Positions 2,127 through 23,020 of a DNA stretch of 25,430 bases are shown here, in pieces. The stretch covers positions 1 to 25,430 of IMG/VR virus record IMGVR_UViG_3300005263_000012; one strand, given 5' to 3'. The position numbers were made by a program, and so were the translations under genes. This DNA is from a virus. Within the stretch, counting starts at the first letter, position 1. Every line of letters starts with the position of its first letter. The notes beneath the pieces are model-generated. The model ran no database searches. It saw only the letters and a program-made list of their open reading frames with translations, and was not told the origin of the DNA.

Positions 2127-3161
2127 TTAAGACAGTGATATTGAACCATCGGCTGAACCAAGAGCCTCTTTAGGGATATCAGTGTTCCCTTCTATCGAAT
2201 CTCTTTCTCCGATAGATTGAACTATGTTGACATCTTTATTTGCTATGTTAAAAGCGGCATTGATATCAGCATGATCAACGTGTCCGCATGTCGGACACTT
2301 AAACTTTTTTCCATTCCTGTTGCCTATAAGTCCACACCTGCTACAGCTTTTGCTTGTATAACGTGGATCAATATAGACAACTCCAACCCCTTGTATTTTG
2401 GCTTTGTATTCTATAAACATTTGAAGTTGATAGAATGACCAACTATTCAAAGAGTATCTGAATGATCTTGCATGTTTGTTATTATTCCTTATTCCGGTTA
2501 AATCTTCAAGTTTAATTCCACTGTTATTCTGTACTGCAATTTCCACAATTTTTCTACTGATCTTATGGTTAAGATCTTTTACAATCCGACTTTCCCTGTC
2601 TTTTATTTGTTTTACCTTTCGGTATTTACCTTTCTTTTGTAGGGATTTCCTGATATTTTTATACTTTGTGTGGATATGCAATCCTTTCTTACCGAGTTTC
2701 CAGACTTTGCCGGTTTCAGGATTAGCAACCGTAGCTATATGCCCTGTCGTATTCCTGTCTACTCCGACATAGTTTGTAGGCTTCTGTACTTCGGTTTCAG
2801 GAATAGTTACAGAAACATAAGCAAACGTTTTCCCTAATTCTATTTGGTTAATCTTTTCAAATTCTGGAAATTGATATTCAAGAGCCAGTTTTACACATGG
2901 AATTTTGATTATGTGCTTATCAACATCTACTTTTATACCCTGATTAGGGACAGTTAATTTGATGTTCTTGACAGATTTAACCTTTTTATTCCTTGCATAT
3001 TTTCTCAAAATCTGATTAGATATCATGGATTTCAAGCCAATATGAGCAACATCTTTTGATGATAATGTCCTATATTTGATGCCAAACTCCGCTACCTTTC
3101 TTGCTTTTTGTAGTTCCTCTGAGAAATCTCTATCATGTTTAATTTTATAAGTTAGAATCAT
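2127..3161 (-). CDS. tnpB: TnpB RNA-guided nuclease (compact, 344 aa)
   Basis: RuvC motifs VGVDRN / IKLEDL / HADINAA, Zn ribbon CSRC...CPTC, and YTSKSC. Confidence 0.93.
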   Translation of the reverse strand: MILTYKIKHDRDFSEELQKARKVAEFGIKYRTLSSKDVAHIGLKSMISNQILRKYARNKKVKSVKNIKLTVPNQGIKVDVDKHIIKIPCVKLALEYQFPEFEKINQIELGKTFAYVSVTIPETEVQKPTNYVGVDRNTTGHIATVANPETGKVWKLGKKGLHIHTKYKNIRKSLQKKGKYRKVKQIKDRESRIVKDLNHKISRKIVEIAVQNNSGIKLEDLTGIRNNNKHARSFRYSLNSWSFYQLQMFIEYKAKIQGVGVVYIDPRYTSKSCSRCGLIGNRNGKKFKCPTCGHVDHADINAAFNIANKDVNIVQSIGERDSIEGNTDIPKEALGSADGSISLS

Positions 3162-3571
3162 TTGTTTTTCTGCTCCTCGATATATTTCTTCACAACATCA
3201 AGAGTTACAGAACCTACTGAGGATATGAATTTTGAAAGTGTCCATAATGTAGGAAGCTTCTTTTTTAGTTCAGGAAATTCCTCTCTTAATTGTTTTGAAG
3301 TATATCCTTTGATTTTTGATACAACTGAATAGACCCCAATTTTAGGGTCTACATCAATTAACAGGTGTACGTGATCCGGCATTACCTCCATATCAAGAAT
3401 CTCATACTGGAATTCTTCTTGCTTTTCAAGAATAAGCTCCTTTAATCTTTCAGCTATCCTACCTGTCAATACTTTTCTTCTATACTTTGGACAAAAGATT
3501 ACATGGTACTGACAGCTAAACACTAGATGTTTACTGCTTTTGTATTTTTTACTTTTATTTTGTATTTCCAT
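3158..3571 (-). CDS. tnpA: IS200-type Y1 HUH transposase
   Basis: YHVIFCPKYRR, HUH motif DHVH, KGYTS, catalytic Tyr in KKYIEEQ. ATGA overlap with tnpB. Confidence 0.96.
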   Translation of the reverse strand: MEIQNKSKKYKSSKHLVFSCQYHVIFCPKYRRKVLTGRIAERLKELILEKQEEFQYEILDMEVMPDHVHLLIDVDPKIGVYSVVSKIKGYTSKQLREEFPELKKKLPTLWTLSKFISSVGSVTLDVVKKYIEEQKNK

Positions 3572-5592: not shown

Positions 5593-6474
5593 ATGAATAA
5601 CTACCAAAATCGAAATAAATCCTTTCTACATACTGTTTTTACAAATCATTCAACTGTTAAATTGTTACAAAGTTCCATCATGATTTCCCTGTCTGGAACA
5701 TTCCGAATTTATCTTGCTTCACTCTTATTAGGTTCATCGGTTTCTCTGTGTCTATGTCTTGCAGGTGGACTTATAATTTACAGTGTCTACACACTTGATA
5801 GAGCTCTCGGCTGCAAAGAAGATATTGTGAATCGTGCTGAACTTTCAAATTCCTGCAAGGATGTAGGGATTGTTGCTTCTCTGGTCACCTTCCTGATAGG
5901 TAGTTTCATTTTTTCACGATATAACATCTTATGGCTTGCGTTTTTTCCATTTATCACAGGATATCTATACAGTAAGGGGTTGCAGCTATTCGGATTTAAT
6001 CTAAGGCTCAAGGCTGGCATCGGAGTGAAGAACCTAGTAGTTGGCCTTACATGGGGTATATTTCTCGCGTTGGTGAGCCTCTCAGACATTCGATATTTAA
6101 GCTCGCCCGTTGCTGTATTTATCCTGTACGGTACAAAGACCTTCATAAATTCAATAATTGATGATTTCAAGGATATCAAAGGAGATACTCTTGCAGGAAT
6201 CAAGACCATTCCAATAAGCTTAGGAAAACAAAAAACTCGAAATGTACTTCTCGTATTACACATTATAGCTCACCTTATTATTTTCAGTATGTTTCTAAAT
6301 GGAATAATCTTATGTCCTGCAATCATCTTATTTAGTTTTCTTTTTGGGTTGGTTTGTATTCTGAGATACACAAATGAACAAAATTATATTAATAGAAAAT
6401 ATGAAATGTGTATTTTTAAGGATGGTGAATCTTTCTTTACATTGTTGTTTATATACTGTTTTAATTTTATTTAA
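5593..6474 (+). CDS. UbiA-superfamily membrane prenyltransferase
   Basis: Many TM helices. Motif 1 YTLDRALGCKEDIVNR and motif 2 DDFKDIKGDTLAGIKTIPISLG (DxxDxxGD). Confidence 0.9.
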   Translation: MNNYQNRNKSFLHTVFTNHSTVKLLQSSIMISLSGTFRIYLASLLLGSSVSLCLCLAGGLIIYSVYTLDRALGCKEDIVNRAELSNSCKDVGIVASLVTFLIGSFIFSRYNILWLAFFPFITGYLYSKGLQLFGFNLRLKAGIGVKNLVVGLTWGIFLALVSLSDIRYLSSPVAVFILYGTKTFINSIIDDFKDIKGDTLAGIKTIPISLGKQKTRNVLLVLHIIAHLIIFSMFLNGIILCPAIILFSFLFGLVCILRYTNEQNYINRKYEMCIFKDGESFFTLLFIYCFNFI

Positions 6475-7318
6475 TTTTCACTATTTCTTTTTCCATTTTA
6501 TAGTCTACGTGTTCCGTTTCCATCTCGATTTTTACAGAGATATCTTTATAATATTCAAATAGTTGATCCCCCCAAGACATAGATTCAAAATCATGCCCTT
6601 CAAGATCGTTCAGGTTATCGTAACATTGTGTATTTTTATTATATAACCCAATTGACAAGAACGGCCCGTTATCTCCACACATCGAGGAAAATGCAATTTT
6701 TATGTCATCGTCACATACATATATATGAGAATTTTTATTTTTTAGAAGTTGCTCCAATTTATCAGGATATTTATTTATGATTTCATCATATACGTCAAGT
6801 GTAACTATAATTTCAAGTTGTACCGGCTTACTTGAAATCTCAATAAACACATCAATCCAAAAGGGATTAATTACAGATGTTACACCTTTTATTCTGGATG
6901 CGCTTTTAGCAATTTTAATAAAGTCCGGGTGGGGCTCCCCTATTGTATAATTCTTTGTAACTGCGACATGGCATGATTTTAATTTCCTGATATCTAGTAA
7001 CAGCTTTTGTGGGATTACTGATAGGTCGTGGTTGTCCCAAAATTCTTTATTTGAATCTATTGCGGCAGTCGTTTCATAGAATATCTCAAGATAATGGGCT
7101 GCAATATTTCCAAGCTGAGTAAGTGTATACAGATCTCCAGCTTTCTCAATAATACCATTTAACTCTAATTTTTTAAGATGTGGTTGAATTTCAGGGGTTT
7201 TTAATCCCAAATGGTCTTTGATTTCATCTAGTTTTTTTGGGCCATTGATGAGATATAATAGTGCATCCCTCCTGATACCTGAAAATGTTAGTAAATCTAT
7301 GGTTCCATTTATTTCCAT
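6467..7318 (-). CDS. wHTH + DUF1724 (FilR1 middle-domain-like) transcriptional regulator
   Basis: N-terminal ArsR-like wHTH (SGIRRDALLYLINGPK..PHLKKL..YTLTQLG), FWDNHDLSVIP and WGDQLFEYYK, typical of Methanosarcinales DUF1724 proteins. Confidence 0.85.
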   Translation of the reverse strand: MEINGTIDLLTFSGIRRDALLYLINGPKKLDEIKDHLGLKTPEIQPHLKKLELNGIIEKAGDLYTLTQLGNIAAHYLEIFYETTAAIDSNKEFWDNHDLSVIPQKLLLDIRKLKSCHVAVTKNYTIGEPHPDFIKIAKSASRIKGVTSVINPFWIDVFIEISSKPVQLEIIVTLDVYDEIINKYPDKLEQLLKNKNSHIYVCDDDIKIAFSSMCGDNGPFLSIGLYNKNTQCYDNLNDLEGHDFESMSWGDQLFEYYKDISVKIEMETEHVDYKMEKEIVKIK

Positions 7319-10182: not shown

Positions 10183-10464
10183 TTACACTTTTACTCCATA
10201 TTTTTCTGCATACCATTTAGTAGTGCGCTCGCTCATCTGTCTAAAATCATCTTCCATCTTTTTCATTCTTCCAAAGACTGCTTCCCTGTTAGCTGCAACA
10301 TAATTCAACTTTTCAACATCTTTATCAAGACCATATTTCTTCACGATTACAGGCCATTCATGCTTTTGAGCTTTATAAAGTTCATCCCAGAAATCTAAAT
10401 GAATCGTTGGGACATTATTATTCTGTTTAAACATTGGTTTTGATTTTGACCTGTATCTGAACAT
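10183..10464 (-). CDS. Hypothetical protein
   Basis: 93 aa, AGGAGG RBS, downstream of repeated promoter A2. Confidence 0.7.
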   Translation of the reverse strand: MFRYRSKSKPMFKQNNNVPTIHLDFWDELYKAQKHEWPVIVKKYGLDKDVEKLNYVAANREAVFGRMKKMEDDFRQMSERTTKWYAEKYGVKV

Positions 10465-10665: not shown

Positions 10666-12021
10666 ATGACAAAATCAATAACGGTAAACTCGTCAATAGA
10701 CGACACGGTAAAACTACAAAAACTAATCGACGCAAACGGCAACACTCCCGCGAAATTTGATTTTCAAGGAGATGAACTAGAAATCAACTCCTTGCTACGC
10801 TTTTTTAATTTCGCTGAAGTTGCGGGTAATGGAATTACATTTAGACTCATGGAAAATGCGCCTGTCAATCCATTTGGTGAGCAAGTCCCACTGACAGGAA
10901 CAAAATACCCGAAAGGAGCTGAGGGGCTATGTTTCCATGACATTATATTTGAAGGCAACAGGGACATTCAAAACAAGGTTCCTAAGAAGAACGGTAAAAA
11001 TTGGGGTCTAGGCTATCATAATTTTATCGGTCTTGGAACAATCTCAAGCATTGAATTTTCAAATGCTGTTAACTGTATATTTTACAATCTGGAATTTAAC
11101 AATTCGTTAGGAGACGGCATTAGACCAGAAGGCGCGACTAATATTATAGTACATGACATCAAGGGTAAACGTACCGGCCACGACACCATAAACTACTCAG
11201 CCGTAAAAGGTGGAGAAGTCTATAATGTGGACCTTATGTTGGGTGTTGGCTCTGGTGTCCGTATGAGATCCTGCCAGAACATCAAGATACATGACTGTAA
11301 GCTTGATAATTCAATGGGATTGACGTATGGCCCAGGTATCCAGATACAGAGTACCGCCGTCAACTGGACCGGCTCAAACATTGAGATCTATGATAATACT
11401 ATCCTAGATACATATGGCCCAGGAATCCAGGTTGCCGGCAGCGTCAAGAATAACGGTCTAATCGGCATCCATAATAACCTCTTTTTAAGATGTGGAGCAA
11501 TGCCGGAAAGTGTGAACCGCCCAATTCTGGGGGGAGTTGCTTTCATGGGATTCCCGGTTCAAATCTGGAATAATACTATTGTGGATTCTTACGGGTTTGG
11601 CCTTGTTGCTGGTGCTTATGATGTTGGTTCTAACTATTCTTATGATGCGACGATTGAACGAAATATTATAACAGGAACTCGAAAAGCGAAGAAGGTGGGT
11701 ACTGCCTCTGGCACTGCAATCGCAAATCTGGTAGGATCAAAATATAATGTTACGTGTTCTGAAAACTGCCTATATGGGAACCTTGCAGAAGTGTATGGAG
11801 TCAAGAATGTTAATGGCGTCTTAAAAGATCCGCTTTTTACAGGAGACTACCGCCTCAAGGAAAATAGCCCTTGTAGGCTCCCAGGCTATCAGCTAGGATG
11901 TTATACTGACAGTACAAACCCAGATGAAGAAACCAGTCTTATGATTTCATCAGATGCAGACTCGATTAATAAAATAATCAATTCACTTTCTAAGGAGTAT
12001 ACCATTTACAGGAGTAAGTAA
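10666..12021 (+). CDS. Right-handed beta-helix protein, disaggregatase-related; no signal peptide
   Basis: PbH1-type repeats (GDGIR, NIKIHDC, NIEIYDNTILDTYGPGI, IHNNLF, RNIITGT, ENCLYGN, DPLF), resembling the Methanosarcina disaggregatase-related domain. Confidence 0.75.
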   Translation: MTKSITVNSSIDDTVKLQKLIDANGNTPAKFDFQGDELEINSLLRFFNFAEVAGNGITFRLMENAPVNPFGEQVPLTGTKYPKGAEGLCFHDIIFEGNRDIQNKVPKKNGKNWGLGYHNFIGLGTISSIEFSNAVNCIFYNLEFNNSLGDGIRPEGATNIIVHDIKGKRTGHDTINYSAVKGGEVYNVDLMLGVGSGVRMRSCQNIKIHDCKLDNSMGLTYGPGIQIQSTAVNWTGSNIEIYDNTILDTYGPGIQVAGSVKNNGLIGIHNNLFLRCGAMPESVNRPILGGVAFMGFPVQIWNNTIVDSYGFGLVAGAYDVGSNYSYDATIERNIITGTRKAKKVGTASGTAIANLVGSKYNVTCSENCLYGNLAEVYGVKNVNGVLKDPLFTGDYRLKENSPCRLPGYQLGCYTDSTNPDEETSLMISSDADSINKIINSLSKEYTIYRSK

Positions 12022-12023
12022 AC

Positions 12024-12527
12024 ATGCCAACTATTACAGATCCTTTAGTATATGAAACCGCAGATAACAAAGTAGTTAAGACCGTCACACTTCCAGGGCA
12101 ACCGGGTAAAAAAATAAAAATTGAACTGTGGACAGCAAAGATAGCTAACAAAACAAAAGGAGTTAGGACAACCCTAACAACCTACATGAAATATCCTGGT
12201 AAAAAGTTCGCCGTTGCGGGATGGGGCGCGTCTACTACAGAATATACTCCTGAGAGTTACAGCACGTATCAGTATGAAGGAGATGTCGGGGTAGATGTAA
12301 TCCTGCAATGGGAACTAAAAACGGATAAAGCGAATAGTACGGCCTACATGAAAGACGCTGCTTACACGTATTCATATATCGATTCTGGGGTAACTCCTGT
12401 GCCCGTTGAAAAAGAGGAGTTTATTGTCATTAAGTGTAAGGAATCTGAAACAAAAGACTTGATAGCTAAAATAAAAGGTATTGCACCAGCTGTCGAGATT
12501 AGCACACTTTCCCAGGTGGGAACGTGA
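12024..12527 (+). CDS. Beta-rich hypothetical protein, possibly a binding partner
   Basis: 167 aa, starts 2 nt after the beta-helix gene. Rich in T/Y/W beta strands, with a PVPVE linker and a short C-terminal module. Confidence 0.7.
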   Translation: MPTITDPLVYETADNKVVKTVTLPGQPGKKIKIELWTAKIANKTKGVRTTLTTYMKYPGKKFAVAGWGASTTEYTPESYSTYQYEGDVGVDVILQWELKTDKANSTAYMKDAAYTYSYIDSGVTPVPVEKEEFIVIKCKESETKDLIAKIKGIAPAVEISTLSQVGT

Positions 12528-12537
12528 CGGAATATTA

Positions 12538-12572
12538 TTCAGGACAACCTCCTGATTTTCATTTTTCTTTTT
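12538..12572 (+). terminator. Hairpin + T-tract terminator
   Basis: TCAGGA-CAACC-TCCTGA followed by TTTTCATTTTTCTTTTT. Confidence 0.45.
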
Positions 12573-12687
12573 CGTCAGAAACCAAAACTGAATATGAATT
12601 ACAATCTTCAGATACCCAATCGACTATTTTTATAAGATCCAAAAATATATAAATGTGTAATTACATACCTTATTAAAAATAAAAAAG

Positions 12688-13047
12688 GTGACATACATTA
12701 CAGACGTAACACTTTTTTCCGAAATCCTTAATGTGATTGTTATACCGACTATCGCTTTTCTTGCCTACAAAGCAAAGCAATACAAACCGCAAATCCAGGA
12801 AGCCGAAGCTAACGCGAAAGAAGCTATTGGAATTGCAGAATCCATCTACTCAAAAGCGAGTTCCGTGCTTCCCTTATTTGAAAATCTTCAGAAGTTATCT
12901 TATGATTACACAAACGCGGCCGCCTCTGGAGACATCTCCAACGAAGAAGCTCAGACACTCTTGGCAGATATTAAGGTGATCGCTGAAGATCCTGCCGTAA
13001 AGGATCTTAGGAAAATGTTAGAGGGGTATACATGTTCGAATCAGTAA
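12688..13047 (+). CDS. Holin-like membrane protein (one N-terminal TM + helical domain)
   Basis: Hydrophobic LFSEILNVIVIPTIAFLAY, then basic KAKQYK and amphipathic helices. Adjacent to a putative wall hydrolase. Confidence 0.5.
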   Translation: MTYITDVTLFSEILNVIVIPTIAFLAYKAKQYKPQIQEAEANAKEAIGIAESIYSKASSVLPLFENLQKLSYDYTNAAASGDISNEEAQTLLADIKVIAEDPAVKDLRKMLEGYTCSNQ

Positions 13048-13116
13048 TAGCCTCTCTCAAAAAAACGTATGCGACAATAATTACAACAATTTAACTAATT
13101 CTAGACTGAGGTATTC

Positions 13117-13479
13117 ATGATTAATAACACGGGATCAATTTCAGACGTGGAGGCATTGGCAGTTCTGGGGGCATGTGGGGCAGCGATAAAAAAATACGGA
13201 CCTACTATTTTGAGAGTGCTTTCTAAACTGCTTGTTTCCTCTTCTGTGGTTGATCACGTTAAGGAGCAGGGGACAGAAACGGCTTTAGCAAAGCTTAAAA
13301 CACCTGATGATATTTTTTGTGTGTTAGAGTCGTTCGAACTGGATAAGGACGGGCGTGTAGTCTTGAGAAATAACGGGAGGGTTAGCAAGCTTCTCAATGA
13401 TAATAGGCCGTTAACTTCGTTTGAAAAGGACGAGGTTATTAAGGTTATGCGGAAGATATTCCAGGTAAAAAAAGAGTAA
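13117..13479 (+). CDS. Hypothetical protein
   Basis: 120 aa, GAGGT RBS. Confidence 0.7.
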   Translation: MINNTGSISDVEALAVLGACGAAIKKYGPTILRVLSKLLVSSSVVDHVKEQGTETALAKLKTPDDIFCVLESFELDKDGRVVLRNNGRVSKLLNDNRPLTSFEKDEVIKVMRKIFQVKKE

Positions 13480-13514
13480 AAATATTAGAAAAGGAGTAAG
13501 TTTTTTTTCTGTAA

Positions 13515-13892
13515 TTACTCCAATTCATCAATCATTTTTTGAAGTTCCTCAACTGATTTGTTCTGTAAATCGGCATCCTGCTTTGAAGCTACGATTTCCA
13601 TTATCTTCTGTTTCTTTTCCTTCCGTTCTCTTGCCTGTAATCTAGCTGCTTCCTCTTCAAGTTTTACCTTGACTATGTATTTCACGATCTCTATTTTAGT
13701 ATTAAGAATTTCATCTTCCTGACTCTTTGTAGCCAGTAAACTTTCTTCGTTTGCTTCTTTGGCTTCAGCATTCAATGTTTTGAAAATTGAATCTAGATAC
13801 CTGACATCTAAATCCCATAGATCCTCAACCGATACTAGACCCCGGAAGGGGAACCTGAACTTACATCTTGTAGCTGTTTCAAACATGTTCAT
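13515..13892 (-). CDS. Phage-type conserved coiled-coil protein
   Basis: FETATRCKFRFPFRGLVSVEDLWDL motif recognised from tailed-phage hypotheticals. AGGAG RBS. Confidence 0.75.
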   Translation of the reverse strand: MNMFETATRCKFRFPFRGLVSVEDLWDLDVRYLDSIFKTLNAEAKEANEESLLATKSQEDEILNTKIEIVKYIVKVKLEEEAARLQARERKEKKQKIMEIVASKQDADLQNKSVEELQKMIDELE

Positions 13893-13905: not shown

Positions 13906-15954
13906 TTAAAATTTAATTTTAATAATTCTTTCTGTCTGCCCCTTGACTTTTACAATCAATTCGTTTCTTTTTGTGGAACTGAAACCAACTCCTGATAACT
14001 GATCATCGGTATGTTGTACGCGCATCTTACCGCCTAAAGCCTCGAAAACCCTCTTATACTGTTCAAGCTCTCTCTTGAGGAATTCGTTATAGAAACCGTT
14101 AGGTGACTCTGGGTTAATACAGTCCTTCAGCATGAAGAAGTAATGCCGGTGTCCTATGCCGTCTTGGGAATCCCAATAGTTAGGGGAGTACATGACAACC
14201 GAAACAGGAATAAACTGATTTGTTTTGAGGTTCCATACTTCTCTTGTGGATACGTTAGAGGGTAGTTTCTCTACTATTGAGAATCCTGTATTATGATTAA
14301 ATGTTACTTCGGCAACTTGAATACTTTCTTTATACTTCAATTCTTTATTGTACTCAAATGAGTGTATCTGCCCGTCAAATTCAATTTCAGCCCTGAATCC
14401 ACTTCTACCGCCATTATTTGAGTAACAGTGAACAAAGAATTTATAGGTTCCTGCTGTCATGTGATTAGTGGTACTCCACGTTATGTTCTCTACGGCTGGA
14501 GCTCCATTGTTTGGATTGATAATATCTACGTCAAGGACTCCACCGGTGGGGCTTAACTGTCTTTTATTAGGATAATATATTTCATATCCTCTCGGTTCGA
14601 TGCAGTGTGCGTCGAGGTCATTCTTATCTGTTTCAATATCGTTCCACTGAATAGAGAACCTTAATACACCTTCGACGTTTCCACCTGCCGACTTTACGTT
14701 TTCTTTCAGGCTACTGTCTGTCATGTTTCCAGAATAAGCCCAACTGAAAGCATTATTCCATTTGAACATAGTAAGGCAGTCATTGTTTACATGGCCTATC
14801 AGGGATACCATACTTTTAGTGTGTTTGTTATCAAAAAGTATTTCAAGCTCTTTAGCTGTTGGTAAGATATTTTCAACAAAGTTATCTATTGAAACCTCTT
14901 CAATTTTTGAGAACTTCTTAGGATTGACTGCTATATCCTTTGACATCTCACCGAATACACCATCTATCCGCTTTGCAGAATCCTTATTTGAGAATAATAT
15001 ATTATTTACTGTGATGTCATCGAGGTTTGCATATCTTCGAGGAAGGGAGTTAGTATAACCGAGCTCTTCGATAGTTGCTCTTGCTTCATCTAACATTTTC
15101 TGAGTAAAGATAGCTTTTGGTCTCTTATAGTTTGTAGGCGCTACGATTTTTTCATATCTCTTGACGGCCTCGTCGAGACCCATACCTGCGCTGATGTCTA
15201 CAAGAAGTACACCTATGCTATGATTCCGTATTCTCCCGACTACCGCACCGGCTTTTATTGACTTTTCCCAAGCAAAGTTATTTTTTTCTTCTTCTGATTC
15301 CAGCTTAACATATTCCCTCTTATATTGAAGGAAGTTAGTTAGTACGTTTCCCCATTCTTCACCTTTATATAGTGTGTTTGAGGCGATCAGTTCAAGCACT
15401 GTAAGCAGGCTATCTTCTGTGAGTTCTTCAAGGGATCTTTTGAATACATCCTTTGTAGCTCTGAAATCTCCTTTTATATCGCCTTCAGACTTACCCGACG
15501 AGTTAACAAACCTTGAAGGTAGTTCGAGATAGAAGTGTTCATATTCAATTACTTTATTATCGCACTTGTCGGCAAGTTCGTAGTTTTTATCAATCCCGAT
15601 TTTTGAGAATTTGGTAACCCATATGTCTGAAACCAACTTCGATTTTACAAACTCTGATAAAGCATTTAGTACCGGTTGATATTCAGAACTTCCACATTCG
15701 AAGTCCCATACTGTTTTTACTTCGTTGTCTTTAATGATTACAGCATTGCCAATTTTCTTAATGAATTGACGGCAAGCACTACAGTCGTGCTCCCTTCGAA
15801 CTCGATGTATCTCATTTGTTCCGGAGGGGAAACTGTCAAGATATATATTCCATAGCTCATCTTTATTTAACTCAACTTCAAACAGGTGAGCTGAGTCTTT
15901 TGACATTTCTATAAAATTGTCCTGTAATGCTTTCTTAACGTGTTTAATAGTCAT
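13906..15954 (-). CDS. Large phage-type protein with an HxCxxC motif and a YfaP/DUF2135-like domain
   Basis: 682 aa. REHDCSACRQF; LRFSIQWND..NDLDAHCIEP.G.EIYY.NK...GGVLDVD...AVENITW. Confidence 0.75.
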   Translation of the reverse strand: MTIKHVKKALQDNFIEMSKDSAHLFEVELNKDELWNIYLDSFPSGTNEIHRVRREHDCSACRQFIKKIGNAVIIKDNEVKTVWDFECGSSEYQPVLNALSEFVKSKLVSDIWVTKFSKIGIDKNYELADKCDNKVIEYEHFYLELPSRFVNSSGKSEGDIKGDFRATKDVFKRSLEELTEDSLLTVLELIASNTLYKGEEWGNVLTNFLQYKREYVKLESEEEKNNFAWEKSIKAGAVVGRIRNHSIGVLLVDISAGMGLDEAVKRYEKIVAPTNYKRPKAIFTQKMLDEARATIEELGYTNSLPRRYANLDDITVNNILFSNKDSAKRIDGVFGEMSKDIAVNPKKFSKIEEVSIDNFVENILPTAKELEILFDNKHTKSMVSLIGHVNNDCLTMFKWNNAFSWAYSGNMTDSSLKENVKSAGGNVEGVLRFSIQWNDIETDKNDLDAHCIEPRGYEIYYPNKRQLSPTGGVLDVDIINPNNGAPAVENITWSTTNHMTAGTYKFFVHCYSNNGGRSGFRAEIEFDGQIHSFEYNKELKYKESIQVAEVTFNHNTGFSIVEKLPSNVSTREVWNLKTNQFIPVSVVMYSPNYWDSQDGIGHRHYFFMLKDCINPESPNGFYNEFLKRELEQYKRVFEALGGKMRVQHTDDQLSGVGFSSTKRNELIVKVKGQTERIIKIKF

Positions 15955-21647: not shown

Positions 21648-23020
21648 GTGAACTACCCCTAAGCTAAAGACTTAGGGGCTTCCTGGTTCATTCCTTGAAC
21701 TTTTGTTCACAAGTCCCCAGGCTCTTCCTCGCGTTCCGCAAGTGTTGAATAGGTTTCAAACACCTATTAGGTTTTGATCTATGAGAGCGAATTTCTTAAT
21801 GTTAATAGCGGCATTAATATCTCTATCTAACACGGTTTTACAGTCTGGGCAAGTCCATTCTCTGTCCTTTAATGTCAAATCAGAGTTATGATATCCACAG
21901 ACGTTACAAAGTTTAGAAGAAGGCTCAAACCTACCTATTCTTAGTATGGTTTTTCCTACCCAATCGGCTTTATATTCTAGTTTTGTTACAAAGCTACTCC
22001 AAGCAGAATCACTAATAGCCTGTGCAAGACAATGGTTTTTCTGCATACCTTTAACATTCAGAGTTTCCAGAGCTATTGCTTGGTTTTCGCTGATAAGTTT
22101 AGAAGAGAGTTTGTTCTGGAAATCAGTTCTCTGATTAGTTATTTTGTCGTGGAGTACAGCAAGTCTTTGTTTAGCTTTTGCCCTGTTTTTAGAACCTTTT
22201 TGTTTCTTCGAAACTCTTTTCTGTAATACTTTGAGTCTCTGAAGAGAATTTTTCAGATATTTAGGATTCTCTATTTTGTCACCTGTAGAGAGGACAGCAA
22301 AGTCTTTGATACCAACATCTATTCCTACAGTAGTAGTTTCTGAGAAAGACTGCTTTGCTGGAAGTTCTTTTCCGTCTTCAACAAGAATACTAATATAGTA
22401 ATGCCCTTTACATGTCCTTGAAACTGTAGCTGTTTTAAGCTCTCCATCAAATACTCTGTGAAGAACTGCTTTAATGGGTTCTATTTTAGGAAGCTTTACA
22501 GTGTTGTTTTCAAAGTCTACTACATAATGCTGTGGAATAGGAAAAGATTGTATAGGATTCTTTTTTGATTTGAACTTTGGAAATCCTGTTTTCTCTCTAA
22601 AGAATCTAGTGAAAGCAGATTCGACCTGTTTAGTCATTCCCTGTAATGATTGTGAATTTACTTCTCCTAACCATTCATTAGAAGCCTTCAAAACTGGAAT
22701 TAATTTGTTTAAGTCAAATCTCGAAATTGATTTTCCTGTTTGTTCGTATGTTTTAATTTTTTGATCAAGTGCCCAATTATAGACAAACCTACAGCTACCA
22801 ATGTGTTGATTCAATTTAACGGCTTGTTTTGTTGTAGGATAGAGTCTAAATTTGAACGCTTTCATCATACAAGGTATTATATGGTTTAACAGCATATATA
22901 GTTTTTGGTAAAATTGGAAATGTTAGTAAAGAATCTGCCGAATATTATATACGGAAGCAAGGTTAAGTTGACGCTTATATCCCGCGAAGCTGAAGACTTC
23001 GGGGTTTTACGCTTCGACCT
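21648..23020 (-). mobile_element. tnpB-only IS200/IS605-family (IS1341-type) element, inserted 3' of TTAT
   Basis: Left end TTAT|AGGTCGAAGCGT-AAAA-hairpin CCCCGAAG..CTTCGCGGG. Right end GAAG-CCCCTAAG..CTTAGGGG-TAGT-TCAC|. Guide/cleavage pairs AAAA/TTAT and GAAG/TCAC are consistent. Confidence 0.9.
21756..22895 (-). CDS. tnpB: TnpB RNA-guided nuclease
   Basis: KAFKFRLYPT N-terminal HTH, RuvC motifs VGIDVG / IALETL / DRDINAA, Zn ribbon CNVC...CPDC. The start is probably at MMKAF. Confidence 0.95.
   Translation of the reverse strand: MLLNHIIPCMMKAFKFRLYPTTKQAVKLNQHIGSCRFVYNWALDQKIKTYEQTGKSISRFDLNKLIPVLKASNEWLGEVNSQSLQGMTKQVESAFTRFFREKTGFPKFKSKKNPIQSFPIPQHYVVDFENNTVKLPKIEPIKAVLHRVFDGELKTATVSRTCKGHYYISILVEDGKELPAKQSFSETTTVGIDVGIKDFAVLSTGDKIENPKYLKNSLQRLKVLQKRVSKKQKGSKNRAKAKQRLAVLHDKITNQRTDFQNKLSSKLISENQAIALETLNVKGMQKNHCLAQAISDSAWSSFVTKLEYKADWVGKTILRIGRFEPSSKLCNVCGYHNSDLTLKDREWTCPDCKTVLDRDINAAINIKKFALIDQNLIGV

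Follow-up and report, generated by a model that had tools for sequence, protein, structure and literature searches.

A disaggregatase-related beta-helix enzyme, a carbohydrate-binding-module-like partner and two small membrane proteins as a candidate egress block in a Methanosarcina virus

The viral DNA analysed here, hereafter the window, comprises the first 25,430 nucleotides (nt) of a single record of 101,744 nt (IMGVR_UViG_3300005263_000012), which is rated 100% complete in IMG/VR. On the + strand of this window four genes follow one another between positions 10666 and 13479. P1 (10666-12021) encodes a beta-helix enzyme of 451 amino acids (aa), recognized from Pfam matches, an AlphaFold2 (AF2) model and alignment, and P2 (12024-12527) encodes its partner of 167 aa, characterized by an AF2 model, structure comparison and fusions in relatives. 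Hydropathy and family alignment define the other two: P3 (12688-13047), a bitopic membrane protein of 116-119 aa and a holin-like candidate, and P4 (13117-13479), a small protein of 120 aa with one N-terminal hydrophobic helix. An AT-rich stretch upstream of P1 (10597-10665), part of the divergent intergenic region between P1 and the minus-strand gene at 10183-10464, contains TATA-like runs as well as an AGGA located 7 nt ahead of the ATG, and is a putative promoter. The start of P2 lies 2 nt 3' of the P1 stop codon. The gap between P2 and P3 is 160 nt long and contains oligo-T tracts on the + strand (12556-12572), a possible archaeal terminator or attenuator, followed ahead of P3 (12641-12691, + strand) by a TATA-like box (AAAAATATATAAAT, 12641-12654) and a Shine-Dalgarno (SD) sequence, GGTGA (12687-12691). 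A T8 tract (13501-13508) between P4 and a convergent minus-strand gene (13515-13892) likely marks the end of the unit.

A preliminary description, made from the DNA letters, had placed a unit of three + strand genes at 10666-13047: a beta-helix protein without a signal peptide, a coupled beta-rich protein and a protein with a single transmembrane (TM) helix. All three genes exist at those positions and, as detailed below, the proteins have the properties assigned to them. However, the third gene is set apart by the 160-nt gap, with its T-tracts, TATA-like box and SD, and is not translationally coupled; moreover, the proposed span stops short of a conserved fourth gene of the block. Not part of that first reading were this fourth gene, the fusions of enzyme and partner, and the C-terminal mini-domain common to P1 and P2.

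Sequence, fold and conserved residues all assign P1 to the disaggregatase-related beta-helix family. The protein matches Pfam PF08480 (Disaggr_assoc) over residues 238-397 with 58.4 bits (cut-off 22.6; E 1.2e-15), a match reproduced at 61.3 bits by a six-frame search of the genome, and PF13229 (Beta_helix) with an E-value of 1.5e-9. PF06848 (Disaggr_repeat), a domain found in the host proteins P0100 and P0108, gave no match in P1 at E <= 1. The identity of P1 to the host disaggregatase-related proteins is 27-29%. When P1 was aligned with five Methanosarcina proteins, G149, D150, H172, R199, Q226, N244, N271, N303, N333 and N367 were invariant, and R153 and D173 are conserved in at least 90% of that alignment. 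The motifs common to P1 and the host family are LGDG(I/L)R, G171-H172-D173 (GHD), R199 and an Asn ladder (N303/N333/N367).

The AF2 model of P1 (pLDDT 92.9) is a right-handed beta-helix starting at about residue 3; the helix and its cap helix begin within residues 3-24, and the model contains no additional N-terminal particle-binding or adaptor domain. The C-terminal 35 aa or so (about residues 417-451) form a beta-alpha-beta mini-domain. The closest solved folds (Foldseek, probability 1.00) are the A-modules of AlgE4/AlgE6 epimerases, GH28 and polysaccharide lyase (PL) enzymes, the best match being 5lw3 (AlgE4/AlgE6-type; TMq 0.60, TMt 0.71). Alginate epimerase/lyase, polygalacturonases, RbmB lyase and chondroitinase B are further neighbors, and uronic-acid polymers are the substrates of all these nearest folds. 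Tailspikes gave lower values (TM 0.28-0.39). P1 has no N-terminal hydrophobic segment: within its first 60 residues the best 15-residue Kyte-Doolittle mean is 0.83, whereas by the same measure the hydrophobic leaders of the five aligned Methanosarcina homologues score 1.9-3.05. P2 and the viral relatives likewise have no hydrophobic leader. Because a signal peptide is absent, P1 would be kept in the cytoplasm.

A tblastn search with P1 against the INPHARED phage collection gave no match, and a scan of viral contigs from a single sequence came up empty, matches appearing once an alignment served as the query. In metagenomes the relatives of P1 comprise about 70 clusters of approximately 450 aa, with 39-88% identity to P1, many of them on viral contigs of 40-110 kb. 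Copies with 56% identity are present on the chromosomes of M. spelaei, a M. barkeri metagenome-assembled genome and Methanosarcina sp. T3 (L029:538-1785, L031:6001-7248 and L032:6001-7290; related loci are designated by L and a number). These chromosomal copies lack a signal peptide, the mini-domain and, at the conserved N-terminus, a canonical start, and they adjoin further beta-helix genes. P2, P3 and P4 were not found near them, and P4 was not found on the Methanosarcina sp. T3 chromosome with the query used. The copies could be viral remnants, a domesticated gene or a donor lineage.

P2 was modeled (pLDDT 88.4) as an eight-stranded beta-sandwich resembling the jelly-roll of carbohydrate-binding modules (CBMs) (residues 1-121), followed by an acidic, Pro-containing linker and a short C-terminal helical element. 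Structure comparison with VIA-align gave a Z-score of 10.2 with CBM36 (rmsd 2.8, 106 aligned), which is moderately above the stated background of 7-8, and scores of about 9-10 with further CBMs, one of them porphyran-binding, and a cyanophage tail-fiber carbohydrate-binding domain (CBD), the range over CBM36, the porphyran-binding CBM and the CBD being 10.2-9.3; CBM16, 22, 61 and 6 and tail-fiber tip domains are other structural neighbors. No CBM sequence family matched P2, its lone Pfam match being Dit_C below threshold (E 0.038; 14.1 bits, cut-off 27), and NCBIfam gave none. P2 is described here as a CBM-like partner that may bind polysaccharide.

The pairing of P1 with P2 recurs in the relatives. 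In every lineage with the short P1 mini-domain and available downstream sequence, P2 starts 2-5 nt after the P1 stop codon or overlaps it. In two independent cases, P0049 (562 aa) and P0061 (565 aa), the P1 helix and the P2 beta-sandwich are fused, and both fusions are without the mini-domain; unfused P1 and P2 each end in a strand-helix-strand mini-domain of about 35 residues. The mini-domains of P1 and P2 are related to each other by hhalign (probability 88.7%, E 2.6e-6), with weak cross-detection by hidden Markov models (HMMs), and they presumably hold the two subunits together. A prediction of the P1-P2 complex (alignments A1 and A2) scored 0.24 against a mark of 0.32 and was counted neither way. 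HMM searches of the virus genome found no further carrier of the mini-domain and no second copy of the P2 beta-domain. Among the relatives, tail proteins of 519-1682 aa carry a P1-like domain, to which the longest two, of 1351 and 1682 aa, add a P2-like domain; a tail-block protein of 775 aa in another relative has two P2-like domains. Since both modules occur in tail proteins and in the block, there exist a virion-borne fused form and a free split form.

P3 has one N-terminal TM helix (residues ~4-22; Kyte-Doolittle 2.03), with an acidic N-side flank and KAKQYK on the C-side, followed by an acidic helical tail of about 90 aa. Its family is characterized by a KYKPQ motif and by a C-domain, helical and acidic, in which a DGxI(S/T)xEE helix-loop-helix motif is conserved (window 12880-12960). 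Comparison of the window with the relative L005 (P1 53% identical) showed no change in the TATA-like box or the SD of P3, though the flanking sequences diverge. The third codon of the frame opened by the GTG is an in-frame TAA in L005 (L005:10020-10060), and the downstream amino acids are conserved. Judged from this stop in the relative, the P3 start is probably the rare ATT codon at 12697, 5 nt 3' of the SD, and the GTG at 12688 was set aside. P4 has an N-terminal hydrophobic helix, weak here and clear in relatives, and a conserved C-domain of about 90 aa; its family is narrow (18 representatives). Both families are small and confined to contigs of the cassette type, and both are conserved with in-frame indels, so that the possibility of P3 or P4 being a spurious open reading frame (ORF) was set aside.

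Scans with the P3 family gave chance-level matches (DUF948, DUF533 and a CII-like PHROG) and none in NCBIfam. A feature search of the ESM Atlas returned unnamed viral clusters below 0.9 for P3 and nothing for P4. A P4 profile matched EF-hand repeat proteins weakly (E 1e-4) over several stretches (window 13330-13400), and the C-domains of P3 and P4 may be degenerate EF-hand/TerB-like elements with a Ca2+- or ion-sensing role. Like holins, both proteins are small, carry a TM helix and end in a charged, hydrophilic domain, and they are encoded next to a signal-less enzyme of wall-degrading type, an arrangement kept across relatives. Their topology would be N-out/C-in.

When the ORFs of 38 related loci were searched iteratively with profiles, P3 and/or P4 turned up behind P1 in roughly a dozen distinct viral lineages (28-66% identity). 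Because the gene order recurs in many related loci, the arrangement is not due to chance. In a reverse look-up, each of three P3 homologues from a database search had P1 and P2 immediately upstream (3/3). The set is not always whole: P4 stays with P1 where P2 and P3 are missing (L015 and L018), and P1, P3 and P4 are present without P2 in L028. In the virus and its relatives the block is preceded by the tail module and followed by partition, replication or integrase genes; P1 is 2.7-7 kb past the tail block in L033-L035, and in L037 the block abuts the integrase. The L015 and L018 clusters add a signal-less papain-like C1 peptidase (L015:6424-7257 and L018:5109-5894; Pfam E 6e-17 and 2e-19), plausibly an S-layer-cutting enzyme. 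A DUF1699 protein is encoded very often just upstream of P1 (L015:2015-2485 and many other loci). Neither Peptidase_C1 nor DUF1699 was found in the genome of the virus studied here.

The 101.7-kb record encodes a large terminase, a portal, a Mu F-like protein and an HK97-type capsid protein, as expected of a head-tail virus. After the head genes there is a long + strand tail block with a tape-measure-sized ORF of 1302 aa. If the record is circularized, an open frame of up to 895 codons spans the junction and reaches window position 539, and the next ORF (498 aa) occupies 544-2040; thus the tail module ends at the beginning of the window. Directly after its last ORF an IS200/IS605 element (Y1 transposase and TnpB; window 2127-3571) is inserted. 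Past this element the genes are mostly on the minus strand (methyltransferase, UbiA, FilR1-type regulator, HNH, later ParA and many small ORFs), and the block lies 8.6 kb away from the last tail-module ORF, across genes that are mostly on the opposite strand. A second PF08480 protein is encoded within the tail module (97523-99112). Far from the tail module, the minus-strand gene g113 (55199-57427) encodes a protein of 742 aa with an Mtd_N domain (major tropism determinant N-terminal) and a beta-helix. A membrane-anchored beta-helix protein is encoded in a transfer-like operon.

The virus is best read as a temperate-type, plasmid-partitioned head-tail virus of Methanosarcina. Its host is Methanosarcina, because the closest non-viral relatives of the enzyme are Methanosarcina proteins, because the 56%-identical P1 copies sit in three Methanosarcina genomes, and because PF08480 was found only in M. 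acetivorans among 14 control genomes.

Several other features of the surroundings were observed. The UbiA-family prenyltransferase and the FilR1-type winged helix-turn-helix protein, which resembles a methanogenesis regulator, are host-like genes at window 5593-7318; the relative L033, whose P1 is 80% identical, also has UbiA and FilR1-type genes (L033:16167-17837). A second TnpB gene lies at window 21756-22895, and TnpB genes also flank the cassette in L033, L036 and L007. A minus-strand gene at 13906-15954, adjoining the cassette, encodes a protein of 682 aa without a Pfam match, which by its position may be a replication protein. In the 101-kb relative L005, genes matching the Pfam families Csf1, RAMPs and Csf3 (weak) are located on the minus strand directly upstream of the cassette (L005:4546-7076); a Methanosarcina virus here carries effector genes of a type IV-like CRISPR-Cas system.

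In aggregated Methanosarcina the rigid outer wall consists of methanochondroitin, which the host disaggregatase dissolves (PMC12369344). A virus multiplying inside an aggregate must therefore breach methanochondroitin to spread. We suggest, as a reading about as likely to be right as wrong, that 10666-13479 is a non-virion egress module consisting of a two-subunit methanochondroitin depolymerase and two holin-like membrane proteins. P1 would derive from the secreted disaggregatase-related family of the host and, having lost the signal peptide, would accumulate in the cytoplasm, acting with P2 through an association probably made by the related C-terminal mini-domains. P3 and P4 would breach or gate the cytoplasmic membrane in a holin/antiholin-like manner, so that the enzyme could reach the methanochondroitin wall or matrix, dissolve it and free the progeny from the cell and the aggregate, whereas entry would be served by the separate tail-borne Disaggr_assoc protein. 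In this scheme we infer methanochondroitin as the substrate of P1, the binding of P1 to P2, the permeabilization of the membrane and the late timing.

Egress is the best reading because P1 and P2 have no export signal though the host family is secreted, because two bitopic membrane proteins constantly accompany P1 and P2, and because the block sits between the tail genes and the partition, replication and integrase genes. Furthermore, since the tail module has its own Disaggr_assoc protein, the free P1 copy is available for a non-virion role. The preliminary description had envisaged a host disaggregatase domain repurposed as an endolysin-equivalent and released by a holin. The similarity to disaggregatase-related proteins was established by the PF08480 match and the residues conserved with the host proteins; repurposing is partly supported, by this family similarity, the lost signal peptide, the linkage to TM genes and the separate tail copy; the holin identity of 12688-13047 found no backing in the family searches.

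A number of observations weigh against egress. P3, P4 and their relatives gave no match to holin or other lysis families in Pfam, PHROGs or NCBIfam (E <= 0.1-1), so that their holin-likeness is drawn from size, one TM helix, a charged tail and the neighborhood. The helix of P4 is only weakly hydrophobic here (1.41, versus 1.5-2.2 in relatives), and a Cys-rich N-terminal extension in one P3 subfamily would argue for the opposite topology. P3 has its own promoter-like element, and T-tracts lie between it and P1-P2, so that co-expression with them is only presumed. In L007 and L034, P1 occurs without a recognizable P3 or P4, and in L039 a fused form of the enzyme is followed by a non-membrane protein. 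The top structural match of P1 is an epimerase, neither a hydrolase nor a lyase. The position of the block is weak evidence, since the fiber-like beta-helix gene g113 is likewise remote from the tail module; in L012, P1 begins 68 nt after the tail genes and on their strand, and P2-type beta-sandwiches and P1-type helices also exist in tail proteins.

These last points bear on a serious rival, a virion spike, which the preliminary description had itself named as an outcome that would refute it: P1 and P2 might form an accessory virion-bound depolymerase, a side spike with which the virus enters through the methanochondroitin matrix. The enzyme would then be docked to the tail by P2 and/or the C-terminal mini-domains, and P3 and P4 would be unrelated travelling membrane proteins, for example for superinfection exclusion or assembly. 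Most phage depolymerases are tailspikes, usually laid out as a beta-helix and then a C-terminal beta-sandwich. The P1 beta-helix and the P2 beta-sandwich match this layout, but P1, whose helix starts at about residue 3, has no N-terminal particle-binding domain, in contrast to g113 with its Mtd_N, and its closest folds are compact monomeric enzymes rather than tailspikes. P2 resembles tail-fiber tips (the cyanophage A-1(L) CBD, lambda gpJ, Klebsiella phage fibers and Kp32gp38), and P2-like domains are present in tail proteins of relatives; the tail module of this virus, however, already carries its own Disaggr_assoc protein. The proximity of P1 to the tail genes in L012 and the existence of another fiber-like beta-helix gene outside the tail module suit a side spike, whereas the 8.6 kb of mostly opposite-strand genes in the present genome and the two constant small TM companions are unlike a fiber module. 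On this evidence we judge the side spike unlikely, though it deserves serious attention.

Alternatively, the block might be a conversion module altering host behavior in a carrier state (a partitioned plasmid or provirus), loosening the matrix so that carriers disperse or take up DNA, with P3 and P4 as membrane sensors or anchors. The ParA-type partition genes, the host-like UbiA and FilR1 regulator genes near the block, the membrane-anchored beta-helix protein of the transfer-like operon and the EF-hand/TerB-like motifs of P3 and P4, which could be sensory, fit such a role, as does the fact that the host disaggregatase governs the switch from aggregates to single cells (PMC12369344). We consider it improbable, because an enzyme that stays in the cytoplasm for want of a signal peptide cannot get to the matrix while the cell is intact; in addition, the chromosomal copies possibly serving the host have no P2-P4, and a place near the tail module is more typical of late genes. 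Similarly small is the probability we give to P1 being something other than a methanochondroitin depolymerase, such as a binding-only beta-helix, an epimerase, an S-layer glycan hydrolase or an exopolysaccharide lyase, in which case the lysis reading would be wrong or incomplete. C5-epimerases are indeed the best structural matches of P1, Disaggr_repeat, a domain of some host disaggregatase-related proteins, is missing from it, identity to the host proteins is low (27-29%), and a single M. mazei enzyme is the only one with demonstrated disaggregatase activity (PMC12369344). Against these stand the invariant His-Asp, Asp/Arg and Asn ladder common to P1 and the host family, the restriction of PF08480 to Methanosarcina among the 14 control genomes, and the several PF08480-type domains, tail-borne and free, carried by the viruses, which fit a host-specific matrix target.

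Returning to egress, the block can be compared with several known systems. In Gram-positive temperate siphophages the lysis cassette classically lies between the tail and the lysogeny/integrase genes, and the present block likewise lies between tail and lysogeny/replication genes. With phage holin-endolysin cassettes such as lambda S/R it has in common a signal-less enzyme of wall-degrading type encoded beside small membrane proteins with charged tails, and, as with virion-associated hydrolases and endolysins, one catalytic module exists in virion-borne and free copies. PlyC of the streptococcal phage C1 is composed of a catalytic PlyCA and a wall-binding PlyCB encoded by adjacent genes, whereas other phages have a single polypeptide; P1 and P2 are similarly split into catalytic and binding-type subunits, which would bind each other, but the folds and targets differ. 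Tailspike and capsule depolymerases (Klebsiella KP34, Kp32gp38, K1 lyase and phi29 gp12) have the same two modules, with weak structural matches to both; P1, by contrast, has no N-terminal virion anchor, and the modules are in two genes outside the tail module with TM proteins alongside. The AlgE4/AlgE6 mannuronan C5-epimerase A-modules and alginate epimerase/lyases, the best fold match of P1, have 14-17% identity to it and no sequence-family match, and these enzymes are secreted bacterial proteins, unlike P1. On uronic-acid polymers they use a His/Asp/Tyr abstraction chemistry also found in lyases.

The Methanosarcina disaggregatase-related proteins resemble P1 in the PF08480 and beta-helix matches, LGDGxR, GHD, R199 and the Asn ladder. 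P1 differs from them in having no signal peptide, Disaggr_repeat, PKD or other C-terminal domains; it is virus-encoded, with a unique C-terminal mini-domain and a separate CBM-like subunit. Holin-endolysin cassettes target murein, in contrast to the acidic heteropolysaccharide proposed here, where the enzyme is a beta-helix protein and no holin family matches; furthermore, their hosts are bacterial, whereas the host here is archaeal and without a demonstrated holin (PMC10791045). PeiW, PeiP and PeiR, pseudomurein endoisopeptidases from methanogen proviruses, are the only characterized wall-lytic enzymes of methanogen viruses, and they are made intracellularly, their crossing of the membrane being unexplained (PMC10791045). 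P1 is likewise made without an export signal; it is, however, unrelated in sequence and fold to these cysteine peptidases, whose substrate, pseudomurein, is absent from Methanosarcina.

According to a 2024 review, the holins of archaeal viruses remain elusive (PMC10791045). In the literature that we searched, no paper ties disaggregatase-like proteins to the egress of Methanosarcina viruses, although prior mention elsewhere is conceivable. We propose, only tentatively, that in P3 and P4 an archaeal head-tail virus would have its first known membrane proteins for egress, of holin type or possibly pyramid/PVAP-like, and that P1 and P2 would be the first archaeal viral 'endolysin' directed at a wall other than pseudomurein, namely a two-subunit methanochondroitinase with a novel beta-alpha-beta docking mini-domain.

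A working methanochondroitinase would serve as a reagent to disperse Methanosarcina aggregates, both for genetics and for community control in biogas production and digesters. The enzyme-CBM pair, split or fused and provided with a docking mini-domain, represents modular evolution between virion-borne and free enzymes. For the exit of tailed archaeal viruses from their hosts, the block offers a conserved and tractable candidate set in the genetically workable Methanosarcina: an enzyme with a chemically defined proposed substrate, methanochondroitin, a binding subunit and two small membrane proteins.

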